The position numbers and the translations under genes were made by a program. From positions 124,001 through 149,213 of the forward strand of contig JAPEUI010000033.1 in NCBI GenBank assembly GCA_026025075.1: a DNA stretch of 25,213 bases, given 5' to 3'. Numbering within the stretch: the stretch's first letter is position 1; the number at the start of each line of letters is the position of its first letter. The notes beneath the pieces are model-generated. The model did not search any database. It was not told the DNA's origin and was given only the letters and a program-made list of their open reading frames with translations. Of this stretch, positions 2,886-21,446 are shown one piece after another. This stretch comes from Vezdaea acicularis (lineage: Eukaryota).

Positions 2886-5800
2886 ATGTCTTTCAAACTG
2901 TCTCGTTCGGCAGGTTCGAAGAATAAGAGGATATCAGACGGTAAGCTGTTCCCCTATATTTTCCCAGGCCAATTGTACTGATTAGGAGCACGTTGGACGG
3001 CGTAGGTATCATTCCTCAGATTAACGGCTTCTTCAAAGGCAGCTCCACAAACGTTTCGGAAATACAAGCGCCCTCCGAACACAGTGATCAAGATGACTCT
3101 GCTGCGCAGTTGGGTTTAGCTCTCCCAGCGACGCCGGCTTCTATGACATCCCATAGTTCCAATGGCGCAGTTGTTGTCGCTAAACCAGAAATAAGTTTTC
3201 TTAAGGAGACTACTACCGTCGTCTCTGTTCAATGCAAGAAGGAACTAGGCTCTGAAGCGGACGATGTCCTCATGGGCACTCCTACCATCGACAGCCTTCT
3301 TGACTTCATAGCTTCCGAACGTCTAAAAAGCATGCCACACAGAGGCAGTCGATGGGATAAAGTCCTCAAGTGGGCAGAATCTTTCGCGAGGAACGTGTAC
3401 TTGTACTCCCAAGCTATTGAGGCATTTGTCATTCATAGCAGGGAGGCTGCGCGTCTGATATGGGGCAGTTGTCGTCTCTTATTGCAGGTTTGTCCTTAAT
3501 ACAATAAACTCTCCGCGAATAGACCTAGGTTTGGCTTATACTTATTTAGATGGGTCCAAAAAACATAGAGATTCTCGAAAAGGCTTTCGGAGTCTTGCAC
3601 CAGATGGGGGATACCATTAGTTTCTTCTTGCAGAGCAAGCCTTTGTTTACAGCCTCCGAAGAGATATGTCGCATTCTGGCCCGTGCCTACTCGGACATAG
3701 TACAGTTGGCCTCCGATGTGACAATCCTTTACAAGAAGAAAAACACCAGCGAGCACTTCTTCCGTTTGTTTGGGTTGAAGTTCAGCCTCAGCAAAGACCC
3801 TCAAGGCGCATCGAAATTTCTACTTCTTGGCGGGTTTGACTCGCGGTTTGGCCCAGTAATTGACTCATTCTACCGCCACAAAGGCCGCTTCATGGAAGAA
3901 GTATGGGCCGCTGCTTTGAGAGAATCCGCACTTCTCCAGGGTACGTACTCGCGCTCATTATCCGTCTAGTCCAAGATCTAATACATCTCATTCCGCAGCG
4001 TCTGGCGTGAGCATTCGGACTCTTCGCCAGTGGCTTGCACCACACGATCGGACCCTTGAAATCCTCGTGTCTGGTCGTATAGGCACAAACACTGCTAGAC
4101 AAGCCCACACTTGTGAATGGTTCGGCACACATCTGGAAAAGTTCCAGAGAGGCGATGATCATGCACTCGTCGTCACCGGACAACCTGGCTCTGGCAAGAG
4201 CGTCCTTGTGGATTACATAATAGACAGACTTAGACGAAATCCTGGGAGAAAGATAGTTCACGATGTAATCTCCTTTACGATCGGTAAGCATGAATTTTCT
4301 AAGTTTTTCCGCTTTACTTCTAGTGTGAAGGCTGACCTTCTTCGAAGATGCGAATCTCAAGACTCATAGTTCTAGCTTAAGTGTCATTAAGAGCCTGCTG
4401 CTTCAATTGCTGGAGAGAAACGTGGGTGACGCTTCGCTGTACAAGGCTCTCTCCGCCGTATATGAAAGTACTGAGAGGCAATCGACCTTTCAAGGCTTGG
4501 AGAATCGCCTGTGGAAAACTTTGGAATCCGCTCTCAAGAAACGAACCAACCGTTTATTGATCGTCGTGGACGGCTTGGACCAACTTGAAGGCGGAGATAC
4601 CGCAAGCGTTGACTTGTGCAGCCATCTCGTGAAGTTGGCAACGAACATCAAGCCTGTGAAGTGCATTCTACTCTCACGTCCGTTGAGCAAATCTTATCCA
4701 TCAGGTGTCAGACAAATAGTCATTGATTCGACCTATAACGCCGAAGATGTCGCCTGCTTTGTCAAAAATGCCGTTTCTTCATTCACAGAATTCGTGAATT
4801 TAAGAGAATCGGACAAGCAGGCAATTATTCAGAAGGTTTCTAAGATGTCCAACGGCACCTTCATATGGGCGGATCTCACGCTTCAGCTTCTTAAGAGAGA
4901 GAAAACGCTTGCGGCCATCCTTCAGAGCCTCGAAACAACGCCAAAGGCTTTACCGGATCTTCTCCAAAAGCTGTGCTCAAGCCTAGATCTTGAGCAAGCT
5001 GACACCAGGCTAATCATTTCGGCTTTGCTTGTCGCTGAAAGACCGCTGACCTTGCTAGAACTGAAGAATTTTCTTGAACTTGACGTAAGGAACTGCAGCC
5101 ACTCTCCTCGACTTTCAAGCGTTGAAGAAGATATCCACAAAGCTTGTGGCTCTCTCGTTGTAGTCCGAGACGGGATCGTTCGTTTCTCGCACCTCTCTAT
5201 CAAGCAGCACTTGCTTATTCTTGTGTCCTCTGGCAAGCTGCCTTTGACGGTCAAGGGGGCGCACAATGAGTTAACCACCCGGAGTTTAGCTTACATTAAG
5301 ATCTCGCTGAAGGAATCAAAAACCGAACCAACCTTTGAATACAGCTGGGACTCGGACAAGTCGGTATTAAAAAGGCTACTACCAGACTTGCTACAAAAGC
5401 ATCACCTACTCGAGTACTCTATGAGGTATTGGCTCCTTCACTTCCGAAGGTCCTCTATGTACGAGACGAAGAGCAAGTACACCTTCACTTCAGAGTTTAA
5501 AGGCTGCTTCTCCGATTCTACTCTCTGGGCAATGGCGGAAGGAAGTTGGTGGGAGACACAGACTTCTGCAAACGAGGCGGCGGACCTGCATTCACTGGCC
5601 CTCGACCTTCGCAAGTCTATTGTCGGAGCACAGAGTAAGTCTGTCATCCAATGCCATATCAACCTGGGCAGGACAAAGCAAAATATATCGGGCTTCTCGG
5701 AAGCGAGCAAGTGTTTCTTTGACGCTTGGAAAATCAGTCAATCTGTTATAGGCCAGAATAGTGCCATGACCGTGGCTTGTGCCAAAGCTTATACCAAAAT

Positions 5801-8800
5801 CGCCACGAATAAAGTCATGACCACTAAAACTGAAATCACCACTCGTACGGAAGAGATCTATAGATATATCTGGTCATCCTACAAACACGCGCATGGCGAA
5901 GCGCATGAAGAGACAGTCAAATATGCCACCTGCCTTGCCTCGTTCTATACACAGCTTAAGAAGACGGAACAGGCCGCCATCGTTTATCGAGAGGTCTACA
6001 CATCGTGTACCCAGAAATATGGCCTCCTTCACAAGCTTACTATCAGCACATCGCAGAAGTTGACCACCGTTTTACAGCAGCTGTCCAAGCATGAGGAGTG
6101 CCTTCATATCTGCCAATCAACTCTCGAGGTATCCAAAAAGACATTGGAGGTGTGGGAACACGTTCGTATTGCGGCCACGATCCGGATGGTTGAGGCGTTT
6201 GAGAGCCAAAAGCAACTGCAAGAAGCAGAACAGCTCCTGACAAACATCAGAAAGAGCTTGATTGAAGTATGCCACTCACGCCATGAAGATCATATTTACG
6301 AAGCAAAAGTCGAGGTCACGATCCACTACGTCCAATTCCTTAAACGCCACTCGCAGGAGAAGACGGCTAAGAAAATTTTGATAGAGTTGTGGAATGAGTC
6401 TGAACATCTACTAGACGAACAAAGTAGTTGCAGTGAGAGTCTCATAGTCCGCATTAAAGCCATTGGAGAAGAGATGAAGAGACTGGAGGTTACAACTGTT
6501 GCTGAATCCGTCTTTTCTAGAATTTGGGGATTCTTTAAGAAAACAAATCGACACACGAGTAAAGAAGCTATCTCAATTGCTGTCTCGCTTTCGGAGATTT
6601 ACAAGATTCATGAGGAGTCTCACAAAGAGGAGACGATCCTAAAGGAGATCTACGAGGTATCCACGAGCACCAGCACTACCACCACTATCGAGACCACGAC
6701 AGTCACGACGTGCATGAAGCTTGGGGCTTTCTATGAGAGAGAGTCGAGATGGTCAGAAGCAGTCGACGTCTGTTCTAAGGTCCTGCTGAAGCTATGGCCA
6801 TCCATTGACATTCCAGATTCTGAAGATTACTATCTTCCACACTATAACTACGAAGACGTAATCCAGCTCACACATCGACTTGGCCTTTGCCATCATAGAG
6901 CGGGTAGTGTGGAAAAGGCAGAGAACGTCTACCTGCGCCTCTTCCGTGCTTGCAGATCATCGCTCCAGTTGCATGATGAGAAGATTCTCACGACCGCGAA
7001 ATTCCTCGTTAGCTTCTACGAGAGTATAGGGAAGGTCGATCAGTCTCGAACCGTATACACCGAGCTTTTAGAAGAGTACCGAGGATTTTTTGGCAGCTCT
7101 CATCCGCTTACAATCAGAACTACATATCTTCTTGCTCATCATTGCGATCACCACCAGCCTAGAGATGCTGAACGCTTTTATCTCGATATTTTTGCAGCCT
7201 TTAATCAGCATTCTGAGGAATGCGACACCGAATCTATCGAAGCAGCTCTCGCTCTTTGTAAGATATACGAAAAAGACAAGAAGTTTAAGGAAGCGCGAAA
7301 GATTTATCGCCGTCTCTGGTTGACCGTCCACCGCCACGGCACTGAAACTGGCCTTGACTCGGAGGCTATGTCTGACATTTACCACAGGTATCTTCATATA
7401 TTGGAGAAGGATGACGATTTCTCGGTGATATGTGAACTTACCATTCAGTACAAAGATACTTGTGTCAAATACTACGGAGTCAAACACCAAATGACCATCA
7501 AAGCAACCATTCAGCTTGCCAAAATCCTCGAGCGAAAGGAATCTCGTCGTGAGGAAGCGGTGAAGATATATGAAGAATTGTGCCACACGATCTCGGAAAC
7601 TCACGAGCACACCCACATGATCGAATCGACTATGATAGAGATCAGGCTACGGCTAGCACACATATACTCTGCCTACGCCTCGACCACAAAGAAGGCAGAG
7701 ACAATCTACTACGAGTCATGGGATCAATTCAGATGCAAGTACGGCTATGCACACGAGCAAACACTAACCCGCCTGCACGAACTCGTCGTGTTTTTCAAGA
7801 AGCAGAATACAAAAGAATGTAAGCACACTGCTGCTGAGACTCTCCAGAAGACAATCATCGAGGTTATTACAAGGGAAAAGGACAGCCATAAGTTGTTTCA
7901 TTCCGCCGAGGCTATCGCCAGCATGTACCTCGCTCTTGACTTGAAGGAGATAGCTTTTGAGCTACTTGGTGAGATACGCCGGCAACTTATCTCTACAGAG
8001 ATCAGGTCGAGCAAGAAGTTCGGTTTTGCTCTCCGTCAGGGCCATACAGTGGACCGCAGATCTTTCGTCTTCGTCAGGGCCTTCGAAGAAGGATTGAAGG
8101 GCGTATTACGACCGTCTCGGTACAGCGAGATCGTAGGCGAGCTGATGACTGAGACGACCCTCTACGAGTCCTGGATGCGTTCCCTGAAGTACGGCGGTAG
8201 GATTGAGTCTATCTTGGGCGTCGGTGCCCAGCTGAGGTTATTTCTCGAAGGCAAGGATCGCGATGAGGAAAGGGATAAGATCACTGACGAGATGTGGGAG
8301 TTATTCCAGGCTGAGTTTGGAGGCTCAAGCAAGAAATCTGGCACCCTCTGGGACTTGTTCACCGTCTGCTTGAAGAAAATGGGGAATGAAGAACATGAAC
8401 TGACAATCATCGACGCTGGCGCCGCGGCCGTGCTCTCTCACTCTGAGAATGGCGACTTCAAAGGTGCTTACGAGCTGGCCAGCTGGCTGTATAAGCACAT
8501 GCAGGCTCATGGCGGACTCACCATACAGCGGAATCTGGCGGTGGGCCTCAAGTTATCGCTTTGCATGGCGGAGCGCACGTCTCATTCAAAGCGCTGCAAG
8601 GATCAAAACCTCAGCTCTAAGATGATGAGTCTGTCGCGAGAAATCCTCAAGGACGTTCTCAAGGCCAGCGAACAGGAACACATGTCGTTTCACAAGATGT
8701 CTATCAAAGATCTGAACCTCATCGTAGGTCTCTTGGGTGAGCAGCAGAATTTTAAGGATCTTGAGGTAATTAGCCCCAATTATTTACCTTGCTGTGAATC

Positions 8801-9555
8801 ACACTAACATTTTTTCTTCATAGCGGATTCTCCGTGATCTCTGGAACGAGCGCCAGACGCACGACTGGAGCAGTCATACAATCATCTGGATCGGCCGCCG
8901 TCTCTGCGAAGTCCAATTCGCCCATGGCCACAAGGATGAAGCCATTGCCCTGTGCGAGGACATTTGCTACAACCTAAAGCGCGTCCTACGCACCCTTCAC
9001 AAAGACACCATCAGCAGCCTCAACCTCCTCTCCTCATTCTACACCGCCACCGGCAGGTACGAGAAATCGATTGCGGTCCACGAACAGATCCTGCAACAGA
9101 CTCTCGCCGAAGAAAACGACTACGAACTCGCCGACGACGCATCAACCATCATCCTCCACCAGCTGCACCTCTTAAAGCGCGCCTACCAGCGCAACGGCAA
9201 ATGGGACCGCGACGAATCGCACTATCAAGACCTCTGGGACGAGTTTTCCTCTCTCTTCGGCTCTCACCATCCCATGTGGTCCAAGATCGACCCTATCAAG
9301 AAATGGTCCACCAAGCGCGTCCTCGCGGCCAACGAGTCTCTCGGCATGTGGCAGCCGCCCGCGACCTGGGATTTCCCGTCGGAAACCCAGCAGAAGCAGT
9401 TGAAGCGCTACAGCAGCGCGGCCAACTTTTCCAGCCGCCTGGAATATGCTCAGGCGGATGATGGTGTGGCGCTCCCGAATGAGGTACATCATCATTGGCA
9501 TAATGGTATCGGAGGCCGGCAGACTGCTGACTTGAATGCGGAGATTGTTTACTGA
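2886..9555 (+). CDS. NACHT-domain/TPR-repeat STAND protein (fungal NLR-like), ~2120 aa; exons 2886-2940, 3006-3487, 3550-3940, 3999-4283, 4348-8765, 8824-9555
   Basis: Five phase-compatible GT-AG introns (2941-3005, 3488-3549, 3941-3998, 4284-4347, 8766-8823) fuse the track ORFs into one 6363-nt frame. Walker A GQPGSGKS (4178-4201), Walker B LLIVVDGLDQ (4554-4583), ILLSRP, GTFIWADL, ERPLTLLEL and VRFSHLSIKQHL are typical of fungal NACHT plus winged helix. These are followed by ~42-aa helical repeats with G-x-x-H-x-x-T motifs (TPR_10/TPR_12-like). Exon 1 and the start codon are least certain. Confidence 0.88.
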
Positions 9556-10997: not shown

Positions 10998-12785
10998 TCA
11001 TCGGCGCCATCCGACGTTCCAGATGACATGTGCAATATCCTTAAAGGTATTGACGGTGTCGACCGCTTTCCCAAAGAGGCCTGCAGCGACGACATCGTCT
11101 TCGTCTTCTTCGATCGGCATGAACATCCCCGAAGGCGTTCGTCGAAGGCCCTCGTGCGAGGGACCTTCTTCGTCGGCGCCGAGGCCGCTCAGGCGGTCAC
11201 GGCTGGTGTAGACGTTGTCACGGCGGCCGGAGAATGCGCCAGAAGGCTCCCAGGCAATGTCGGCGTCTTCGTCCTCATCGTCCAAGAGAAAGTTTCGGGA
11301 GGGTTTGGCGGGCCGGAGGGTCTCTTGGGATGGTGAAGGGGAGAGCAGCCTTCCTGAGCCCCAGATCGAATGCGATGTGGACGAGCCCTTTTCCGGCGGC
11401 TCAGGAGTGTCGCCCCGGAGAGTCGTTGATGGTAGCATGGCGATCGTCTTACTTTCGCTGGAAAAACTATTTCGCGGCGTACCCGATCTCGATCGGGGTT
11501 TTATCTTTGAGGTCGTTTTCATCATGATCAACCCGTCATCAGACGAGGAGTCGTCGTCTTGGATAGCGCTGTAGTCCTCCTCTGCATCGTCGTCGTCCCC
11601 TTCCTTGATGTCCACAGCGATACATTGCTCGACTTTGTCGTTCCAGTGGATGTGCTTCCGTTCACCGCTGATACCAGGTGTTTGCAGCCCAGATGAAGAA
11701 CTGGATGGGAATGCATTGGTGCTTTCGTCACTGCCAGCGGTGGATGGGAAAGGGTACGTGACGAAATCAGATGTCGCTCGGGCTAGTTTCGGCCGGCGAT
11801 CATTTTGCTGTGCTTGAACCGCGGCCGCTGCTTGCTGAACTAGCGAGGATGTGGAAAGAGAACGTGATAGCATGATTTCTGAGACGCTCCTCTTCTTCAA
11901 AATTGGCTTCTTGTTGAGAAACGAGTTGCTGGTAGATAGTCGTGGTTCGGCAGGAGATTGAGCAGGTGCGCTGGTCATGGCATCGCCAGTTTGCAAGGGG
12001 CCATACAGCCATGTCACATCATAGTCTTTCATCCTGCAGAAACGTGTCTTAGTACGGGCGAAGGAGGTAGGATAGATTCAAAGATGATAGAGAACGTGAT
12101 TAAAAGATGAAGCAGCATACCAATTCAGAGCCTCCGGTGAGATGGTCCGGAGCTTGTTTTTCGACTTCGTCCATGTTCTCCACGATGCATTCTCGAGCCG
12201 AGCGCTGTTACTGTAGACTTTCCGCTTCGAGACGATATGCCTCCAAGAAGACCAGATATCTTCCTCTTTCCAGTCATGCGACAGATAGTCAACATGTCGT
12301 GATGGATGATTCCGGACAGCGGTATCATCAGATGTCGTTTTCGGTATCAGCTCCGGCGAGTCTGGTCTCGATTGGATATTGGAGGTGGTGTCGGTACTCG
12401 TGGACTTCGAGTAGTCCGTATAAGTATCAACGTTGCTCGTGCTACTGGGGACCTCCAGGTCTTCGGTGTTATCCAAAAAGCCCACGTCGTCGTAAGAAGG
12501 GAAAACGATCTGGTCGTCTTCGTCGGTTTCACACCTGCTGTCGAGAGAAAAGCTACTTGCTGGCGTCGAGGAGAGGGAGGAACGGGTCGATGCTTCACTT
12601 TCGGATGTGCGAGGATGAGTGGTGACAGAGCGGATGTCGTACTTGACGTGAGCTCTGGGTTTGGAAGGCGTTGGGGCGTATGATGTGGGAGAATTGACCA
12701 AGAACGAGGAAGAGTCGCCTCGTGAGTTATGCGTGAAGTATGAAGACCCTTCCGAGTGAGTCGACACGGACAGAACTTCTGTCAT
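10998..12785 (-). CDS. REG1: Protein phosphatase 1 regulatory subunit Reg1/Hex2-like (glucose repression), ~566 aa; exons 12785-12121 and 12033-10998
   Basis: Conserved block RHVDYLSHDWKEEDIWSSWR...RLENASWRTW...ISPEALNW|MKDYDVTWLYGP (DUF1752-type), then KPILKKRSVSE and the PP1-docking motif KHIHW (11657-11643). Intron 12120-12034 (GTATGC...TACTAAG...CAG) restores the Trp codon. Confidence 0.9.
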
Positions 12786-13694
12786 TGTGGCCTCCGGTCC
12801 GCGGCACCGTTGGTGTTGTGCGTTGAACCTTTTCCCGCCCGTTCACAACAATGGGGTGATTTGGATCGTGTAAAATCGCCAGAGTTAATTCTGCCGGCAA
12901 TTGGCTCCGGCGTATCCTAAACCTCCGAAACGGCGCCCAGCATATGAGATTGATTGAGTTGGGGTTATCATCTATCAGACAATCGTACTGATTGTGCTAC
13001 TCGAGGGAGGTGAGGATCGAACGCGGTGAAGGGGAGAAACGAGTGACGAGTTCAAGATGTATTCCGGGAAAGGCGTTCTTGTTGCAAGCGGTGCCTCGTG
13101 AACCCCACACTTGCCTTTCAGGTGGGTTCTTGGAGTCTGTTTGGGTCAAGAGGAAGGAAGGAAGAAATCACTGTCGAACATTCACGGCGGTGGGTCTGGT
13201 GGAGTGTGGCAGGAGGCAAATTGGGGGGATAATGGAGGGTGGAGGCAGTAATTGACGGCGGGCCAGGATGGGATGGATGGTGGGAGGAGCGTGCGGTTGA
13301 GGGACCGTGAGTGTGGCTGCTCGCCGGGCTTTGGGGTCTGGGAGAGCGGCGGGCAGGAGGCAAGAGGCAGGAGCGACGACGGCGATTGGCCGGGCGAAAG
13401 CGGTCAAGGGCGGCGCGATCTCTTGGCGGGCCCTTGGCCGGCCGTTGACGTCGAAGGTGCGCAAAGCCGGACAAAACAGGGACTCGGGGCAGTTCGCCGC
13501 GGCACTAGCCAGTCAGACGCGTGCCGCCGCTCCTGGAGGCTATACCTCCCGTCCTCTCGCGGCGATACAGATGGTATCCATCTCGTAACAGCCTCCTTGT
13601 GGTGTTGTGCACTCCCAACCGCCCTCCCCGGGAATGCGCTGCAGCGGAACAGGCATTGGGCTCGGCCCAGTTTAATTACTGATTAGGGCCTGCA

Positions 13695-13767
13695 CCTCTC
13701 GCCGTCGCAAGAGCCACGGAGATGACGTAGCGGACGAGAGAGATCCTCTCGCGCGTCGCAAGAGCCA
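13695..13767. repeat. Direct repeat of a 22-23-nt unit upstream of REG1
   Basis: cctctcgc-cgtcgcaagagcca (13695-13716) and cctctcgcgcgtcgcaagagcca (13745-13767), with TGACGT (13723-13728) between them. Confidence 0.8.
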
Positions 13768-13856
13768 TCTGGAAAGCAGGACCCGATCGCGCGGACGGCG
13801 AACGCTATATTCGGCTACGATGTGCCGTCCTGAAGGTTCACGCGCGGACCGGCGAT

Positions 13857-13905
13857 AATGGACAATGGACAATGGGCAATAAGCAACAGACGATGGACCA
13901 TGGAC
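13857..13905. repeat. Degenerate 7-nt tandem repeat, 7 copies (consensus AATGGAC)
   Basis: aatggac aatggac aatgggc aataagc aacagac gatggac catggac. Confidence 0.8.
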
Positions 13906-16900
13906 CCTTTCTTCAGCCCACTCACAATGTGCCGAGACCGCGCCCTGCCCGGCGGAGAAGGGGGAGGCGGAAGGCGGCCGCGGATTGGAGGGGTCGATGG
14001 CGGAAGGCGGTCAGTGACTGGGGGGCGCGCTGGGTGCAGTAACCTGGGACGGCGCTGCAGCCACCGAGCAGGTCATCACCCTCTAGGGCCACGAGGAGTG
14101 CGGGCACCATTTGCCTGCCGGTCTGCGCTGCGTGCGCTCTTTTGCCCTCCCCTCTCATTGCGCGGCAGGGCCTGCATCAGAGCCGGAGCAAACCATACCA
14201 AACGGCTTTCCCTCTCTCTCGCTGCTGATGCACCCGCTTGACGAGACTCTCAAGAACGTGAAAAGCATCGCGGCTATTATTAACGAGGGGCAGAACGTCG
14301 GCATTCGAGATCACAAGCGCGACGGCGGAGATCGGCTACTGTAGCGAGGGAGGGGAGACTGGTGGGGATTTGCCGTGACTGCCATTGAGCGAATGGAGGG
14401 CTCGCTCGCGCCCTCGCTTGACCAAACCCTCGGAGGGGCGAAAATCCTCGACTGCTTGGGACGAGTTCGACGGGGACAAAGACCCACCATGACCGGCCAC
14501 CGCAGATGGCCACCAAACCGCATCCTGGAACGGCTCGATGGCACGCAGAAGTGGTGGTGGGGTGCCATTGCAACGTGCAAGATGCGTGCAAACACGACAT
14601 ACTCAAACAACTGACCTCGCCCACACGCTCTCCCTCGGCTTTCAATACCACGAGAGCTGGGTTGTCGAGATGCAGAACGCTAGAAGGTACTTCCGACCCC
14701 CTCCATTCCTTCGAGAAGCGTGATCGTCGATCTGCCGGACGCATGGACTCGATTGACCGTGGATGCCCGCCGTCACGGCATGCGGCGGGCCTCGGACGCT
14801 CGACATGGAAGAGACATTTAAACGTCGTCAGTTTTATACCGCCGCAGGACCCGCAGTAAAGCCGAGCGAGACGTCTCTGTCTCAATACGGCCATTGCCAC
14901 CCAAAAGCTCCATCGAGACAATCTTACGGACTTGCCCGTCGAGAGGGAGTATCGGACGAATGTGTCGTGGGACTGAGAAAATTCTTCCTCGCCGTCTCAT
15001 TAGCCTAACCTGCCTTAACGCAACTCCAAGGCTTACTCTGAGCACGCTTGATCGCACCCTGCCGTTTCTTAGCATCGAACGTGACGCGCAACCCCCCACA
15101 AAGGACAAAGTCGTCTTGACCACCTGCTCGGATGCCTCAGCCATGGTCTGTCCCAAAGGAAGTCAGTCACCCTTTCGGGCCCCTTCGGACGTTCAAAAGG
15201 CCCTCATGCAAACCATCGGAAGATCCGTGAAGGGCTCTGCTACTAGTTTCTCCGTTCAACGCACGATGTGGGGTCACTAGGGCGTTCAAGACGAGAAATG
15301 GATGGAGCGGAGGGTCCTCCGGACAGCTGCGCTCGTCCACTCGACGGCTTCAATGCCGCTATTTTCCCCACATATCCGCTGGGAAGCACATGCAGCGGGT
15401 ACGAATCGATCCCTTGGGAACTACAGAATCTTCCGAGGTGAGCCAATTCGTGGGTTTCATCTCTGGGTTGAATGGGTCTCTTGAGACTTCTTGCATGGGG
15501 TGGTGGCCCATCGTCTAGAGATGCTGGAGTAGATACCATTGAACCAGGACATACAAAGGATCGAAACCGCCCCAACAAATGGAGAAGAGATTGACACCCT
15601 CGTATCCGAGGAAGGCCTCGGCCACGACCCCTCGTTGACGTTCGGTTGCAGATATTGCGATCAATATCTGTTTACAGCCTTATTGTTTGCTTGTTTTCCA
15701 CAATATGGCCTCGTATGCTTGGATAACGGCGTGTAAACAACGCTCCGCCCTCTACCAGCATCTCTTATCATCCTTCAATTGCTTGGGGGAAAGACGCCTC
15801 CGGTCCAGGATCATGCTCAAAGCGTTGCAACGATCGCTCTCGTGAAACTGCAACTGATCGGTTGCATCGAAGTCGCCATTTTCACATGAAAATCGACCGC
15901 CGCGTTTCGTAGGATCTACTGACTGTTTCGGCATCAGCCTCGTGGCCCTGGGCTCAGGCCCATGAGCCCTTTTTGATAACCGTTTTCTTGTACGACCTTC
16001 GCTTCGCGCTGATTTGCCTTTTGAAGGATCAGCACTGCCATTTTGAGCCAGAAGCAGGGGCGGTTTGGGACGGGGGGAGACCCTCCCTCCACGCGCTCCC
16101 GCACCTGCCAACGGCCTAGCTACTGTAAGGAAAGGGGACCACAGTCGAGTCACCCATGGAAAGACGCTCCCAGGCTCGAGATGACGTCTTATGCTCGGCT
16201 CGTGTCACTCGGGGCTCGTTGATGTATTCCCCTGCCGACTGCGGCCGTTGCGCTCGCGGCTTGTCGTGGACCGACGTCCGATCGCGGTGCTCCTATCAGC
16301 GTTGCACGAGCCGCCGTCCATATCTGCGCTGCTGCTCGCTTAAGCAAATGCACAACTCCCTGGCGACTCTGCTGCATTATCAATCTGTCACAATTTCAAC
16401 AGTTTTCCGGCTTCGAGCATCCAGTCGACCCCGTCGCACCAGCCTCTCCTTACATTTCTATCAACTCCGCTCCAGCACCAGCGATCGACATTGCGGCATC
16501 TTCCAGGGTGCGGCGTCGCCCCCCGGTATACAGTGGCATCCTCCGTGGGGTGAGTCTGATAACGTCTGGGGCCGTGAGCCTGATTGATGGTAGCATCGGT
16601 GAAAGCCGCCGCCCACGGCCCAAGGGCGCGCAATATCCCCCAAGCCGCCAGACGCACTGCGCGTGCATAGGCGATCGCGCGCCAAAGCCTTCGGACCCCG
16701 TTGATCTTCACGAGGCGGCGGATGGCACAGGTTTGTCGCGGGCCTCCAATGGCAGCTGGATCTTGCGCACACTCAGGCTGAGTCGCTCGCGGATGAGGAC
16801 GACGCTCGAGCCAGGGTCTCCAATGGCAGGCGGCGGGAAGGGTCCGAGCGCTTCCCGCACGTTTCCTCAACCCTCTTTCTTTGCTTTTCCTTATCGTGCG

Positions 16901-18014
16901 CCTCACGATTTAGCAAGTGCTTACCGCAGGACATGGCGTGGCGCCGTATCCAGATGTTGGAGGTTCAAGCCATCACTCCGCCTGCGTCTGTTTTTTTGAG
17001 GGTTGCGAGCGGTCGTATACAACAATTCGACGACAATTTGACGACCAGTCAATCTGTCCACCCCGCGGAAAGTGGCGGGAAATGTCACGGTACGTCCCGC
17101 GCGTGGACAGCAGGAATCAATCCCGATCATCATCTATCCTGTCCTGTTTGCCCAGCGCGCCGTCATGCACAAACCCCCCCTTCGAGAGGGCAGGCGGGCG
17201 GCATAATCCATCAAACCTGCCCTCGAGGTGGGGGTTTCGGTCGTGGGAGGGGTGACCCCCACGGCCCCTCCCTGCCCGCAAGCCGTCCCTACTCCCACAC
17301 ACGCCGTCTTCCCGCGGAGGCTTGGGACGGAGCGCCTCGCCCCCAAGCCACAACTCCCCAGATTGCCATGTTTTGTGCGACATGGCATTCCTGCACTTTC
17401 GCGCCCCCCTCCGCGGCTTGTGACGGGTCACATCGCCGCCTTTGGCTCTATCGCTCCAACAAGCCGATCTCAGGGGATTGGTGTGTTTATTTTTCGGAGA
17501 TTTAGAATCGAGGCTGGGTCCTTGATATATGGGCCAGGCCCCGCCTCCCCTCTCGCCTCTCCGGTTGATGGGAGAGGGACTGGTCGTGGGAAAGGACTTT
17601 CTCTCTCTATCGGTCGGACAAGTTCGTTGTTTGAGCCACACGTCCTCCCAAGGCCTTTTATACTTGACACAGCAAAGCACACTCCATCAATCATATCTTC
17701 CCCTCTCTCAAACAACCCTCTCCAGCATATCAACCCCATAACCTCCCCATCCAGACCCATATCCCTCATCACACTAAGGAACCCTCCTTCTACCAGCGCA
17801 TTTGCGTCTCGACCGCGCCACGCTAGTCCGTCCCTCATATCTCGATTTTTCCGAGATTTCCCTGTTTTTTTTTTCGCTCGCATATCAGGCAATCACAGAC
17901 GAGCGGCGCACGCATTGAACCCGGATGGCGTTCTTTTCGTTTTTGTTTGGTTGATTGGTTCGGTTAATTGGCTGTGGTGGGAGTGGGAAGGTTGCATGCG
18001 CCACACCCTTCCAT

Positions 18015-18145
18015 ACAACAAACAGCATCCAGCACAATCACAAAGGTTTTTATATGTATTCTATCCTTTCCTTTCTTCCGCACAATAACAGCATCACCGC
18101 AATCACGAAGGTCGGTTATCGTATTCTATCACTTCCCTCCCTTCC
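18015..18145. repeat. Imperfect tandem duplication, period ~65-66 nt
   Basis: Shared blocks aacagcatc (18021/18087), caatcac (18035/18100), aaggt and gtattctatc (18056/18121), each copy followed by a pyrimidine tract. Confidence 0.8.
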
Positions 18146-18956
18146 CACTTTTCCCCCCCCCCCCCCTTTTTTTCCGTCCTCTATCGCGCTCAACCCTAAA
18201 CTAAAATCAACCTCTCCTCCCTATCATCTTACCCCTGTAAGCATCCCTTTTCGGGCGAGCGGAGGATTTGGTGGGAGGCTCTACCCCTCTCTGAACCTTA
18301 TTCCATCCCCCCTCCATCCCGCTTGGGCGCAAGCGATGACGGGTCTCCCATATTCAATCACACAGAATTGGAATTGAAAGTAAGAATGAAACGAGAATAT
18401 TATCAGTGTAGTCGTATATCTCTCCTCCCTGACTTTTCTTGTCCGGGGTATAGCCAGACCAGAGTTTGGTGTAGGGGGTTTATTACCTGGCTTTGAGGAA
18501 ACTATTCATTCCTCCCCCCTCTCCCCTTTCTCACACCATTCCACCCACTTACCCGCCCTTCCTCCCATCCTCTCCGTCTGCCATTAAAATAATGGACTAC
18601 CAACCCCATCCCGTGCCCCCCCCCCACCCCAGTATTCTTCGACAGCTACGTCGCACAACCATCCAGCCCCGCCATTTCCTCCCACGCACAACACTGCCTG
18701 ACTCCCTTAACTCCCCCGAACCCCCGTCTTCACTTGAGTGAAGTATCCGGACATGTAGACCCATTCCGGAAGGGGCGGTTCAACGAGGGATTGATTATTC
18801 TTTCGGCCCCAGCGCGTTAGACGCGCGTCTCCTGTCTTCGAGCGAGAGAAGCGAGAGGAGCGAGACGTGGGGATGGGTGTGATATTCGTAACCCTCGTCG
18901 ATACTCAATAAACTCGTACAAAGCTTCGCTGGAGTATGAAAAAGCCGTATTTTCCA

Positions 18957-18987
18957 CATTCCCAAAGTGAGGCATTCCCAAAGTGAG
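18957..18987. repeat. Perfect 15-nt tandem repeat CATTCCCAAAGTGAG x2
   Basis: Identical copies at 18957-18971 and 18973-18987. Confidence 0.9.
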
Positions 18988-19842
18988 ATAGAGGGCGGTA
19001 TGTGGTTCAGGAGGTGATGGCAGGTTGCTGAGAAACTTGGATGGGAGACTCGCTGGGATGGGGTCCCGAGATACTTGTTAAGGTGAGTGGAATGGTGTTT
19101 AGAGAAGTTGGGAGAGGGGGGGCTCATGGGTGGAAGGAGTGAGGGTGGTATTAATGGATTAGGAGGGTTCGCTTGTTCGGGTTGGGGTGAGTGGGGGTGA
19201 CTGTTATATCGGGTTGGACGCGGGGGAAAGGGGAAGGGGGTCTTCGGGATGTGGAGGTATTGGGTTGAGGCGGTTATTAGGGTTGGTAGGTTGAGTGGGG
19301 TGGTATAGCTTGTTCTGATACCCAATCTTACAATTACAGGCGGTGCGTGATAGATTTGCCGTACGGATCAAGGCAGTTGGGTCTACGCACCCCCCAACGC
19401 CCCTTTATTCCCTATGAGCCTTCTCCAGTGCGATTAAGGAAAGGCCTTCAATGACCTGATGAGACTTGTAGATCACAAGGACTGAGGACTGGTCGAATCG
19501 CGTCTGGTACGTCTTATCCTGCCTTGGTATTATCGTTGTCAACAGCCTGGAGCTAAGAAGAAAAGGGGGGTACTGAGAGCAGCTCCCGCTATCTTTGCTG
19601 ACAAGGTTCCGGCGCAGGGGTGGTGCCTCGAAGGATGATGTAGCTACCCTAGAGTTCCGGATGCGTGCTCATATCGAAACCTAGCTACGGTGAAATCTAG
19701 TTAGTAAAATATTACCCCTGAAAGACCTATTACCCAATCGTTATCGTACCTGTTTAGATGCCCATATCTTTAATCGCAAATGTCTGTCAGGGGTCTACTC
19801 CTCTTGCCCTAAACCCTAATTCAACGCCTAAATGCACCAGCT

Positions 19843-21061
19843 TCAAAGCTCATCAAAGAGGCGTAATCGCGGATCTTCGGGCAGGACCGTCCGAGTCCGC
19901 ACCGCGGGGGAGGGCTTCTTCTTCGTACCAGCTTGCTCCTCCTTCCTGCGCGCTCCAAGTATAGCGCCCCTCCAGCCTTCTGCAGTGTCGCTCACGTTTC
20001 CCGTAATATTAGACAAAAGCCTTGCCGTTTCCTTATAATGCAGCGGCGGGCCAGCCGGTTTGTAATGAATGAAAAGCAGTACCACGACCACGGCCAGTAC
20101 GCCTACGAGCATGCCCCACAGCATCCTCAGTCGCCGCGACATCTGCACATGCCATTCCTCTTCTCGTCGTTCCCAGACCTCGGCTCTACCCCGCACGATT
20201 TCGAGGCGCTGACTGAGGGCTTCTACCTTGCTGCGGCCTTGTTGAAGGCGCGATTCGAGGGAGGATACCTTGGCTTTCTGGTTGCCGAAGGTGTCGAGTG
20301 CGGCGAGCTGCGTGTTGACGTCGGTGCTGAGAGCGCGGGCATCGGATGAGAAGTCTTCATGTAGATTCGAGATGTGGGTGGATAGGTCAATCAAGGCGGA
20401 GGTTGTGGAGTGGAGGGAGGAGACCCTTTCGAGAATGGAATAGTAGCTCATGTCGAGGGAGCGGGAGATAGAAGTTGAAGATGCCATGAGCGCCGTAAGG
20501 GCAGCAGATATCTCTCTATGCAGCACAGGAAATCAGACTCTGCAGAGTGGACATATATCCCTTAGAAAGCAGATATAAAAAGGACGCCTACTCATCGCGT
20601 AGTTGAGACTTCTCTCTACTCTCCCCTCCTCCCCGCTTCGCCGGCCCTCTGTCTATTACTGTTGCTGTTGGCCTTGGAACCTCTAAGCTCCCTCTGCCAC
20701 TTGAGCCTGTTGCTATAACTCTCTCGTGCAGTCCAGCTATGCTCGGGACTCGCGAGTGGCTCCTGCTCTCGGCCGGCGTCCCACCCGCGCTCTTGCTAAC
20801 GCGTCGGTGTAGGCCTGGCGCATCCTCTAGCTTGTGGCTAGGTTGGAATATGTGCGAGGATCGCGGTGAGTCGCGATCTCTGCGGTGTAGATGTGGGTGA
20901 TAGTGGTGGTGGTGGTGATGGTGAGGTTGCTGTGTCGATGAAGCATTTGATTTGCTCAAAGAGGAGGTACTGTCAGTCGGAACGCCCCCACTTGGCGGCC
21001 TAGTATCAGGCTGGCCCGTCGTGTGGGAGCGCTGTAGCGACGGTCGATTGAAGTGCTCCAT
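19843..21061 (-). CDS. Hypothetical ~380-aa membrane protein: disordered His/Ser-rich N-terminus, coiled coil, one TM helix, C-terminal FDEL; exons 21061-20592 and 20515-19843
   Basis: Intron 20591-20516 (GTAGGC...CTGAT...TAG) joins two track ORFs in frame. Heptad-like region QKAKVSSLESRLQQGRSKVEALSQRLE, TM segment LWGMLVGVLAVVVVLLFIHY, ends DPRLRLFDEL*. Confidence 0.8.
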
Positions 21062-21446
21062 GATGGCATTCGAGTGCTGGCAAGAACCAGCGGATGGTCT
21101 GGGCGCTGTCGTGTCACTGGATGTAAGGACGTTTCGAGCATGTGAAGACCACGAAGCGAGTCATGAGGTTAGGAGGCGCATGACTAGAGGAATTTAGAGA
21201 AGATAACTACGCTACTTAGCAGCCGCGCTGTATGCTAACACAAGATTCGTTCACACAGGGTCAATGCTGTAATATGAATATAATGTTTAGAAAATCCCCA
21301 ACCATAATCTTCTCCTCCTCGACTGTTCGCCTTTTACTCGGCAATCAAATGCATATATCAGCAGTGTCCAGATAACGTTATTTTTATGCAAACAATTCCC
21401 TATAAACACCATTCTTTATGCACAAGTCTCAAACATGACTCCTTTT

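Follow-up and report, generated by a model that had tools for sequence, protein, structure and literature searches.

A probable telomerase RNA locus in Vezdaea acicularis with a candidate template and pseudoknot on the minus strand

Introduction

The telomerase RNAs (TERs) described from filamentous fungi combine a CCCUAA template, a boundary helix and a pseudoknot made of a U-rich strand, CS3, and an A-rich strand, CS4 (PMC3603654, PMC3592445), with a CR4/5 domain in which a 4-bp P6.1 stem bears a NUNGN loop and is preceded by an A (PMC3592445, PMC4993307), and their 3' ends are described as products of cleavage at AUA(A/C)GU after a pyrimidine tract (PMC3603654, PMC4299874). In the published alignment of 10 Aspergillus species, CS3 reads GGAUG(U/C)U(C/A)UUUGU and CS4 reads AAACAAAAAC (Kuprys 2013, PMC3603654). 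The Neurospora crassa TER is given as 2049 nt long, with a template-pseudoknot core at nt 225-1515, from which arms at 256-433 and 463-1288 are deletable, and P6/P6.1 at nt 1826-1864 (Qi 2013, PMC3592445). Such RNAs evolve too fast for gene finders and Rfam. Here we describe a probable TER locus in a 25,213-nt stretch of Vezdaea acicularis DNA (assembly GCA_026025075.1, contig JAPEUI010000033.1, positions 124,001-149,213), hereafter the window, whose own numbering is used throughout. A preliminary description of this DNA had suggested a plus-strand telomerase RNA or, failing that, an undescribed structured lncRNA within a folded interval at 17670-19760.

Results

A candidate template and two pseudoknot motifs stand in canonical order on the minus strand

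The 8-mer AACCCTAA occurs three times in the window, at 19284-19277(-), 18192-18199(+) and 19812-19819(+), where 0.5 occurrences are expected and 2 of 100 shuffles reach three; no 8-mer or 9-mer of any other telomere-repeat permutation was found elsewhere in the window. At the first of these sites the minus strand reads AACCCTAA(TA) and supplies the template candidate AACCCUAA, which has a CCCUAA core and repeated ends and is complementary to more than one repeat. Together with its 3' flank it forms AACCCUAAUA (also AACCCTAATA), a 10-mer shared with the A. niger row of the Aspergillus alignment, and it resembles the CCCUAA-containing templates reported for Aspergillus and Penicillium TERs (PMC3603654). 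As described for N. crassa, the template would comprise a repeat and a short alignment region, 8 nt here against the 9 nt of UAACCCUAA, and the overall sizes are similar (PMC3592445).

About 1.25 kb 3' of this template, the same strand carries a CS3-like sequence followed, 69 nt away, by a CS4-like one (Table 1), so that both pseudoknot strands lie 3' of the template. Each is the single exact match to its motif in the window (GGATGYTNTTTGT at 18030-18018(-) and AAACAAAAAC at 17948-17939(-)). The exact pair appeared in 0 of 8,635 local-composition shuffles, and in one of the 8,635 when up to one mismatch was allowed in each motif. Relative to the Aspergillus TERs, 12/13 positions of CS3 and 10/10 of CS4 are identical and their order is the same, with a spacing of 69 nt here versus ~42 nt in the published alignment (PMC3603654). 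No U-A-U pseudoknot had been recognized in the preliminary description, a claim that appears outdated in view of a candidate U-rich/A-rich pair, pseudoknot-like, at 17913-18034. A search of 596 Gb of prokaryotic genomes for the CS3/CS4 pattern with a gap of 40-70 returned 25 hits, all in bacterial records; AACCCTAA is present at three of these 25 loci, and none of them is TER-like. The idea that they represent contaminant TER contigs was dropped: one has AACCCTAA upstream on the same strand, but lies in a 102-kb bacterial contig.

The canonical order of these elements, and a motif identity that is exact and uninterrupted, lead us to place the core on the minus strand. Read in that direction, the RNA would open with a hairpin arm, followed by the template AACCCUAA (19284-19277), from which TTAGGGTT would be added to chromosome ends, a hairpin arm of ~1.16 kb (19231-18070), a pseudoknot region at ~18057-17939 with the CS3 and CS4 sequences known from Aspergillus and, lastly, the strand 17758-17693, which would pair back near the template and close the core as the 3' strand of a core-enclosing helix. 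The succession of arm, template, large dispensable arm, pseudoknot and closing helix is that reported for the N. crassa TER, in which the deletable nt 463-1288 correspond in position to the arm at 18070-19231 (PMC3592445). That this is the TER gene of a filamentous ascomycete with its template-pseudoknot core on the minus strand has, in our estimate, about an even chance; the predicted RNA would then be transcribed from the minus strand, bind TERT and template telomeres.

Table 1. Features of the locus and its flanks, in window positions
Feature	Positions	Strand	Evidence or detail
REG1-like gene	10998-12842	-	Pfam GATA_AreA domain, E 7e-11
Whole folded domain; C-rich half and G-rich half (on plus) paired in nested order	17650-19448		Minimum free energy z ~-5 on plus, ~-2.5 on minus
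Outer arm, left strand; pairs with 19238-19306	17693-17758		Pair probabilities 0.83-0.89
Candidate A-first intron-like signals	17862-17915	-	AUGCGU 17915-17910, CUGAU 17888-17884, CAG ending 17862; 5' site 24 nt after CS4
Hairpin GAACGCC..GGGUUC, then AA, a GC-rich stretch and GUCUGUG	17893-17933	-	Flanks like Aspergillus junction (6/8 and 7/7); no 4-bp P6.1
CS4-like A-rich strand AAACAAAAAC	17939-17948	-	10/10 identical to 6/10 Aspergillus rows
65-nt tandem duplication; duplicates CS3-like sequence	18006-18145		2.1 copies, 75% matches
CS3-like strand GGAUGCUGUUUGU, with GAU element	18018-18030	-	12/13 identical to A. oryzae
Large hairpin arm between template and pseudoknot, ~1.16 kb; includes compound helix 18514-18550/19079-19121	18070-19231	-	Minus-strand minimum free energy structure; probabilities ~1.0
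Second AACCCUAA; template implied by the preliminary description	18192-18199	+	18192-18196 pair with 19179-19183, probability 0.8
Outer arm, right strand; holds minus-strand template candidate	19238-19306		Minimum free energy structure, duplex tests
Template candidate AACCCUAA	19277-19284	-	With 3' flank = AACCCUAAUA
CR4/5-like three-way junction	19342-19391	+	P5 GGUGCGU/ACGCACC, P6 GAUUUG-CCGUA-CGGAUC, junction A, P6.1 AGGC-AGUUGG-GUCU
Pyrimidine tract (14/16), then candidate A-first signals	19398-19471	+	AUGAGC 19414, CUGAU 19456, UAG ending 19471; 5' site 23 nt after junction
Two adjacent long open reading frames, 229 and 190 aa	19843-21160	-	No Pfam family

The locus has an unusual nested fold available to both strands

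The folded domain anticipated in the preliminary description is real, with boundaries slightly shifted to 17650-19448, and in the minimum free energy (MFE) structure of the minus strand it is closed by a perfect 9-bp outermost helix (17650-17658/19440-19448). The GC skew shifts from -0.31/-0.28 over 18001-19000 to +0.45 over 19001-19500. All five long-range pairings proposed earlier are present at their coordinates, and four of them are perfect Watson-Crick helices (7, 6, 10 and, as inner helices, 12 + 16 nt); of five local hairpins, four recur in the plus-strand MFE structure and the fifth, 19640-19688, in that of the minus strand. Pair probabilities in the compound helix 18514-18550/19079-19121 are 0.9-1.0, and its duplex z is -6.0, with none of 300 shuffles as good; the outer arm 17693-17758/19238-19306 has a duplex z of -3.0, equalled by 6 of 300 shuffles.

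The comparison of folding energy with dinucleotide shuffles, a check that had been suggested for both strands, came out in favour of the fold. On the plus strand, 17690-19400 has an MFE of -595.1 kcal/mol, against -559.9 +/- 7.0 for 14 global dinucleotide shuffles (z -5.0), -552.1 +/- 8.5 for 14 shuffles inside 100-nt blocks (z -5.1) and -552.3 +/- 8.2 for 30 shuffles of 8-nt chunks inside 200-nt regions (z -5.3); the last, which preserves local motifs and the C-rich/G-rich layout, is the hardest control, and 0/30 reach the native value. Three control regions of equal length in the window gave z-scores of +1.7, -1.2 and +2.5 (nine shuffles each). The minus strand of the same region has an MFE of -619.2 kcal/mol and a z of -2.4 to -2.7. 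The nested, collinear complementarity is therefore real and unusual. Local elements, with z-scores of -1.5 to +1.5, fold no better than shuffles.

The preliminary description had taken the G-U pairs to point to the plus strand. Alignment of the five arm pairs does not bear this out: 10 mismatches are G-U on the plus strand only, 13 are G-U on the minus strand only and 47 are transversions. The gain over shuffles is likewise about equal, 33-36 kcal/mol on the minus strand versus 35-43 kcal/mol on the plus strand, and the arms behave like imperfect inverted repeats, usable by either strand.

Several further sequence features were noted in the domain. At its left edge, the minus strand carries a canonical TATAAAAG directed leftward (17658-17665), which shares positions with the 3' strand of the 9-bp outer helix. 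On the plus strand, homopolymers of C15 and then T7 (18152-18173) stand just upstream of the plus-strand AACCCTAA, and the T7 with its flanks is 93% complementary across 14 nt to GAAGAAAAGGGGGG at 19557-19570; a perfect 16-nt tandem repeat, CATTCCCAAAGTGAG(G), is present in 1.9 copies at 18957-18987(+). The tip of the large arm holds two adjacent predicted three-way junctions (18720-18776 and 18780-18901), and the loop of the hairpin GCGCG-UUAGA-CGCGC in one of them fits NUNGN on the plus strand, with a hairpin order that is wrong for CR4/5.

A CR4/5-like junction lies on the plus strand

A three-way-junction descriptor scanned over both strands found two matches in the whole window, against a mean of 1.4 in shuffles, or 0.15 when P5 has at least 7 bp; one of the two is on the plus strand. 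The plus-strand match (19342-19391) can be drawn with a P5 of 7 bp, a P6 of 6 bp, one A and a 4-bp P6.1. Within it, GGAUCAAGGC matches the Aspergillus GGAUCAAAGC in register, and GATCAAGGC is found at 19366-19374(+). The GGAUCAA(A/G)GC junction motif is thus shared with the Aspergillus TERs, but stands here on the strand opposite the pseudoknot motifs, unlike in the published alignment (PMC3603654). Like the vertebrate CR4/5 as described, the element can be folded into P5, P6 and a 4-bp P6.1, one A separating P6 from P6.1, and has U and G in the loop; it differs in that the loop has 6 nt, not 5, and in that this fold is not the thermodynamic optimum (PMC4993307), at -19.3 kcal/mol versus -24.3 kcal/mol for a plain hairpin.

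Candidate 3'-end signals were seen on both strands: those of the minus strand begin 24 nt beyond CS4, those of the plus strand 23 nt beyond the junction. Such A-first triplets of signals occur twice in 16800-19900, both strands counted, against 1.40 expected (2.25e-4 per nt per strand). Both candidates, which follow the TER-like elements at 23-24 nt, resemble the spliceosomally cleaved fungal TERs in having an A-first 5' site, a CUGAU branch and a YAG; unlike the sites described there, the hexamers are AUGAGC and AUGCGU rather than AUA(A/C)GU, and a pyrimidine tract precedes only the plus-strand one (PMC4299874). A further set of canonical intron-like signals lies in otherwise non-coding DNA at 19507-19617(+), with GUACGU at 19507, GCUGAC at 19597 and a CAG ending at 19617.

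These plus-strand elements bring up the model favoured earlier, a single plus-strand TER. Such an RNA, which we consider unlikely, would run from ~17690 to ~19413 with its template at 18192-18199, pseudoknot at 17913-18034, CR4/5 at 19342-19391 and cleavage at AUGAGC 19414. It would use the only plus-strand match of the strict junction descriptor, which together with GGAUCAAGGC in register was seen in 0/9,750 shuffles, as well as the pyrimidine tract (14/16) and A-first signals 23 nt beyond the junction, and it has the stronger folding z-score. The make-up of the U:A runs on this strand suits a U-A-U triple helix. The pseudoknot region would, on the other hand, lie 5' of the template at 18192, an order of no known TER, and its sequence there is the antisense of the Aspergillus motifs, which are in sense on the minus strand. 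A helix that ends 1 nt before the template (18174-18190/18982-18998) reaches -27.3 kcal/mol on the plus strand versus -20.7 kcal/mol on the minus strand and is matched by 0/300 shuffles, but its ensemble probability is 0, and the template is predicted to be paired (18192-18196, five of its eight positions, at a probability of 0.8). On the minus strand the nearest helices end 6-17 nt upstream of the template. The plain hairpin is also favoured over the junction fold by 5 kcal/mol, the junction loop, at 6 nt, is longer than the consensus 5, and G-U pairs show no net bias to the plus strand. The plus-strand junction also lacks the conserved GUC that follows P6.1 in vertebrates and Aspergillus.

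Two variants of a plus-strand gene were discarded. A pseudoknot 3' of the plus-strand template (18430-18443 with 18917-18944) matches the Aspergillus CS3 at 9/12 positions, which we estimate to be chance level. A plus-strand TER using CCCTAAACCCTAA at 19807-19819 would run antisense through the 229- and 190-aa minus-strand reading frames. CCCTAAACCCTAA itself consists of two telomere-like units with one extra A and lies 24 nt beyond the stop of the reading frame at 19843-20532(-); it is possibly a telomere-like repeat in an interstitial position, or else a site for a TTAGGG factor, and hints that the telomere repeat of the organism is TTAGGG or TTTAGGG.

The strands therefore conflict: the pseudoknot is in sense on the minus strand, and the only good CR4/5 candidate is in sense on the plus strand. 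We know of no telomerase RNA with recognizable parts on opposite DNA strands. Within the reading of a minus-strand core, this would be accommodated by a naturally split TER, in which a minus-strand template-pseudoknot RNA (~19450-17916) and a plus-strand CR4/5 RNA (ending ~19413) are joined on TERT in trans, each having been 3'-processed at its own A-first splice site. Such a split would explain the minus-sense pseudoknot, the plus-sense junction and the two A-first modules, one 24 nt beyond CS4 and the other 23 nt beyond the junction. A two-RNA telomerase RNA of this kind is, as far as we are aware, unprecedented, and we rate it as quite improbable. As far as the account of N. crassa goes, the only demonstration to date of TER domains assembling in trans is with separated fragments in vitro (Qi 2013, PMC3592445).

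The conflict could also stem from an inversion of ~17690-19306 that flipped the core relative to CR4/5 and the 3' module, leaving a non-functional copy, with an intact gene elsewhere; alternatively, the orientation would be an assembly error. Flipping 17690-19306 back yields, on the plus strand, template, arm, sense pseudoknot, closing helix, junction, tract and A-first site, which is the canonical order, and the segment is bounded by inverted-repeat arms. These arms are only ~70-85% complementary and so would poorly support recombination or mis-assembly, a copy without function is not expected to retain exact motifs, and the minus-strand A-first module would be left unexplained; we rate a rearranged TER as very unlikely.

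Weighing the minus-strand core

Rfam holds an ascomycete TER model. A check by covariance models, as the preliminary description had suggested, matched no Rfam telomerase family. The comparison with Aspergillus was made with short motifs taken from the published alignment, not with profiles or covariance models, and at this level the core blocks CGTCGGTTT, CCAATGCTGG, GCATGGCGG and GATGTCCAGAG gave weak scattered matches without a pattern in the interval, as did the motifs TATAAGT and GCTAACT; among eight Aspergillus motifs scanned, the junction motif alone gave a lead. For the template-boundary strand TTGGGAATC, a match with one mismatch at 19325(-) was set aside as not significant, such a match being present in 9,219 of 15,332 shuffled strand-scans.

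Several of the results weigh against a TER with its core on the minus strand. Rfam 15 gave no match at gathering score across the whole window, and in searches of sub-regions no match with E <=10 belonged to a telomerase family. Motif choice followed inspection of the window, so the shuffle frequencies overstate the significance of the matches. The minus-strand template is predicted to be paired, with an unpaired probability of <=0.14 at six of its eight positions, although in a G-rich context the accessibility of a template is poorly tested by nested thermodynamic prediction. The CS3-CS4 duplex is no stabler than shuffles (243 of 500 are as good), and the U/A runs fit the plus strand (U4, U5, U3 versus A3) better than the minus strand (U3, U3 versus A5, A3, A5, A4). 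The best CR4/5-like junction is on the plus strand; when the 7-kb gap was shuffled locally 9,750 times, its descriptor and motif never occurred in register. On the minus strand, a strict scan of 16400-17960 for a P6.1 with a 4-bp stem, NUNGN loop and preceding A returned no candidates and relaxed scans returned poor ones only, so that no CR4/5 was found 3' of the pseudoknot on the same strand; in the N. crassa TER, by comparison, P6/P6.1 is described as lying ~310 nt beyond the core of the same RNA strand, its 4-bp stem bearing a NUNGN loop (PMC3592445). Neither strand of 12800-20000 contains an AUAAGU or AUACGU splice site. The hairpin at 17893-17933(-) was tried as the missing junction and judged weak, its flank pattern occurring in 196 of 7,666 shuffled gaps. 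The features reported for Aspergillus TERs that this locus is without are the AUA(A/C)GU 5' splice site, the GCUAACU branch site and the CGGC3-5U7-12 tract (PMC3603654).

A rival reading is a locus with no TER at all, a skewed spacer rich in inverted repeats, possibly a structured non-coding transcript or promoter, in which the 8-mers are TTAGGG-factor sites or chance and the TER-like motifs are coincidences produced by intensive searching; we regard this as doubtful, though not negligible. It would account for the lack of an Rfam match and of a canonical AUA(A/C)GU site, the disagreement in strand among the TER-like elements, the four core blocks without a pattern and the single useful motif among eight. 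The arm complementarity, equal on both strands with symmetric mismatches, is as in decaying DNA inverted repeats, the local elements fold like shuffles (z -1.5 to +1.5), and for almost every feature sought, some weak resemblance could be found on each strand. The same reading requires both the CS3+CS4 match and the junction match to be chance, when the exact pair was seen in 0/8,635 shuffles and the junction with its motif in 0/9,750; three AACCCTAA sites against 0.5 expected, a number that 2/100 shuffles reach, and an architecture collinear with N. crassa also speak against it.

Genomic setting

The domain lies in the gap between the REG1-like gene and a pair of reading frames (12842-19843). 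Pfam found no family among five translations of open reading frames (ORFs) tested in or next to this interval, the ORF at 17207-18088(+) is without homologue, and the ORF at 18795-19367(-) has a single marginal low-complexity match (E 2.5e-4), in agreement with the earlier statement that the interval encodes no plausible protein. Aspergillus and Penicillium TERs, of ~1.6-2.1 kb, are likewise placed in an ORF-free intergenic gap; their flanking genes are given as Zpr1 and a TATA-box interacting protein, unlike the REG1-like gene and unknown membrane protein found here (PMC3603654). Between 13000 and 17600, ~4.6 kb of DNA with 57-62% G+C contains many overlapping ORFs of 100-260 aa across several frames. 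About 200 nt upstream of the minus-strand template, at 19490-19516(-), the sequence ACGTACCAGACGCGATTCG is loosely like the conserved upstream element of Aspergillus TER genes (CACGTG then ACGCGTCGCG).

The ORF pair at 19843-21160(-) includes a coiled-coil-like stretch and a hydrophobic segment and has the C-terminus ...RLFDEL. A search restricted to longer proteins returned no homologue, and the pair looks like a real membrane protein. Genes for a mitochondrial carrier and a Vps10/sortilin protein follow to its right. In a homologue search with the flanking carrier fragment, the best named relatives were 65-69% identical and came mostly from lichen-forming and other Pezizomycotina; with relatives no closer than this, the lineage is poorly sampled, and the host seems, from these sequences, to be a Pezizomycotina-type fungus nearest to lichen-type or neighbouring ascomycete lineages. 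At the other end of the window, 4407-8807(+) is a single 1,466-aa ORF; it contains TPR repeats, matches P-loop NTPases weakly and is of the NLR-like kind common in filamentous fungi.

Discussion

The analysis bears out the fold and shows a template candidate and two pseudoknot motifs in canonical order at this locus. A TER-derived locus is the best reading because two independent TER-specific matches, each with a frequency below 1 in 8,000, coincide with a template and with the architecture. When the minus-strand core, the single plus-strand gene and the rearranged copy are taken together, it is probable that the locus is one of telomerase RNA. The telomerase assignment made at the outset is in this sense strengthened, by the template 8-mers, the two exact Aspergillus pseudoknot motifs and the CR4/5-like junction, and weakened by the lack of an Rfam telomerase match, and its transcription from the plus strand is not upheld.

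Among the papers of the collection searched, none joins 'telomerase RNA' with 'Lecanoromycetes', and TER appears from this search to be undescribed for the lichen-type or neighbouring ascomycete lineages. If the locus is confirmed, the template and the expected telomere repeat of this lineage would be known, its telomere biology would become easier to approach, and the comparative set for the ancestral fungal and vertebrate core would widen. If the domains on opposite strands are both real and functional, this would be the first natural two-piece telomerase RNA and would test the physical connection that the enzyme needs between its RNA domains.

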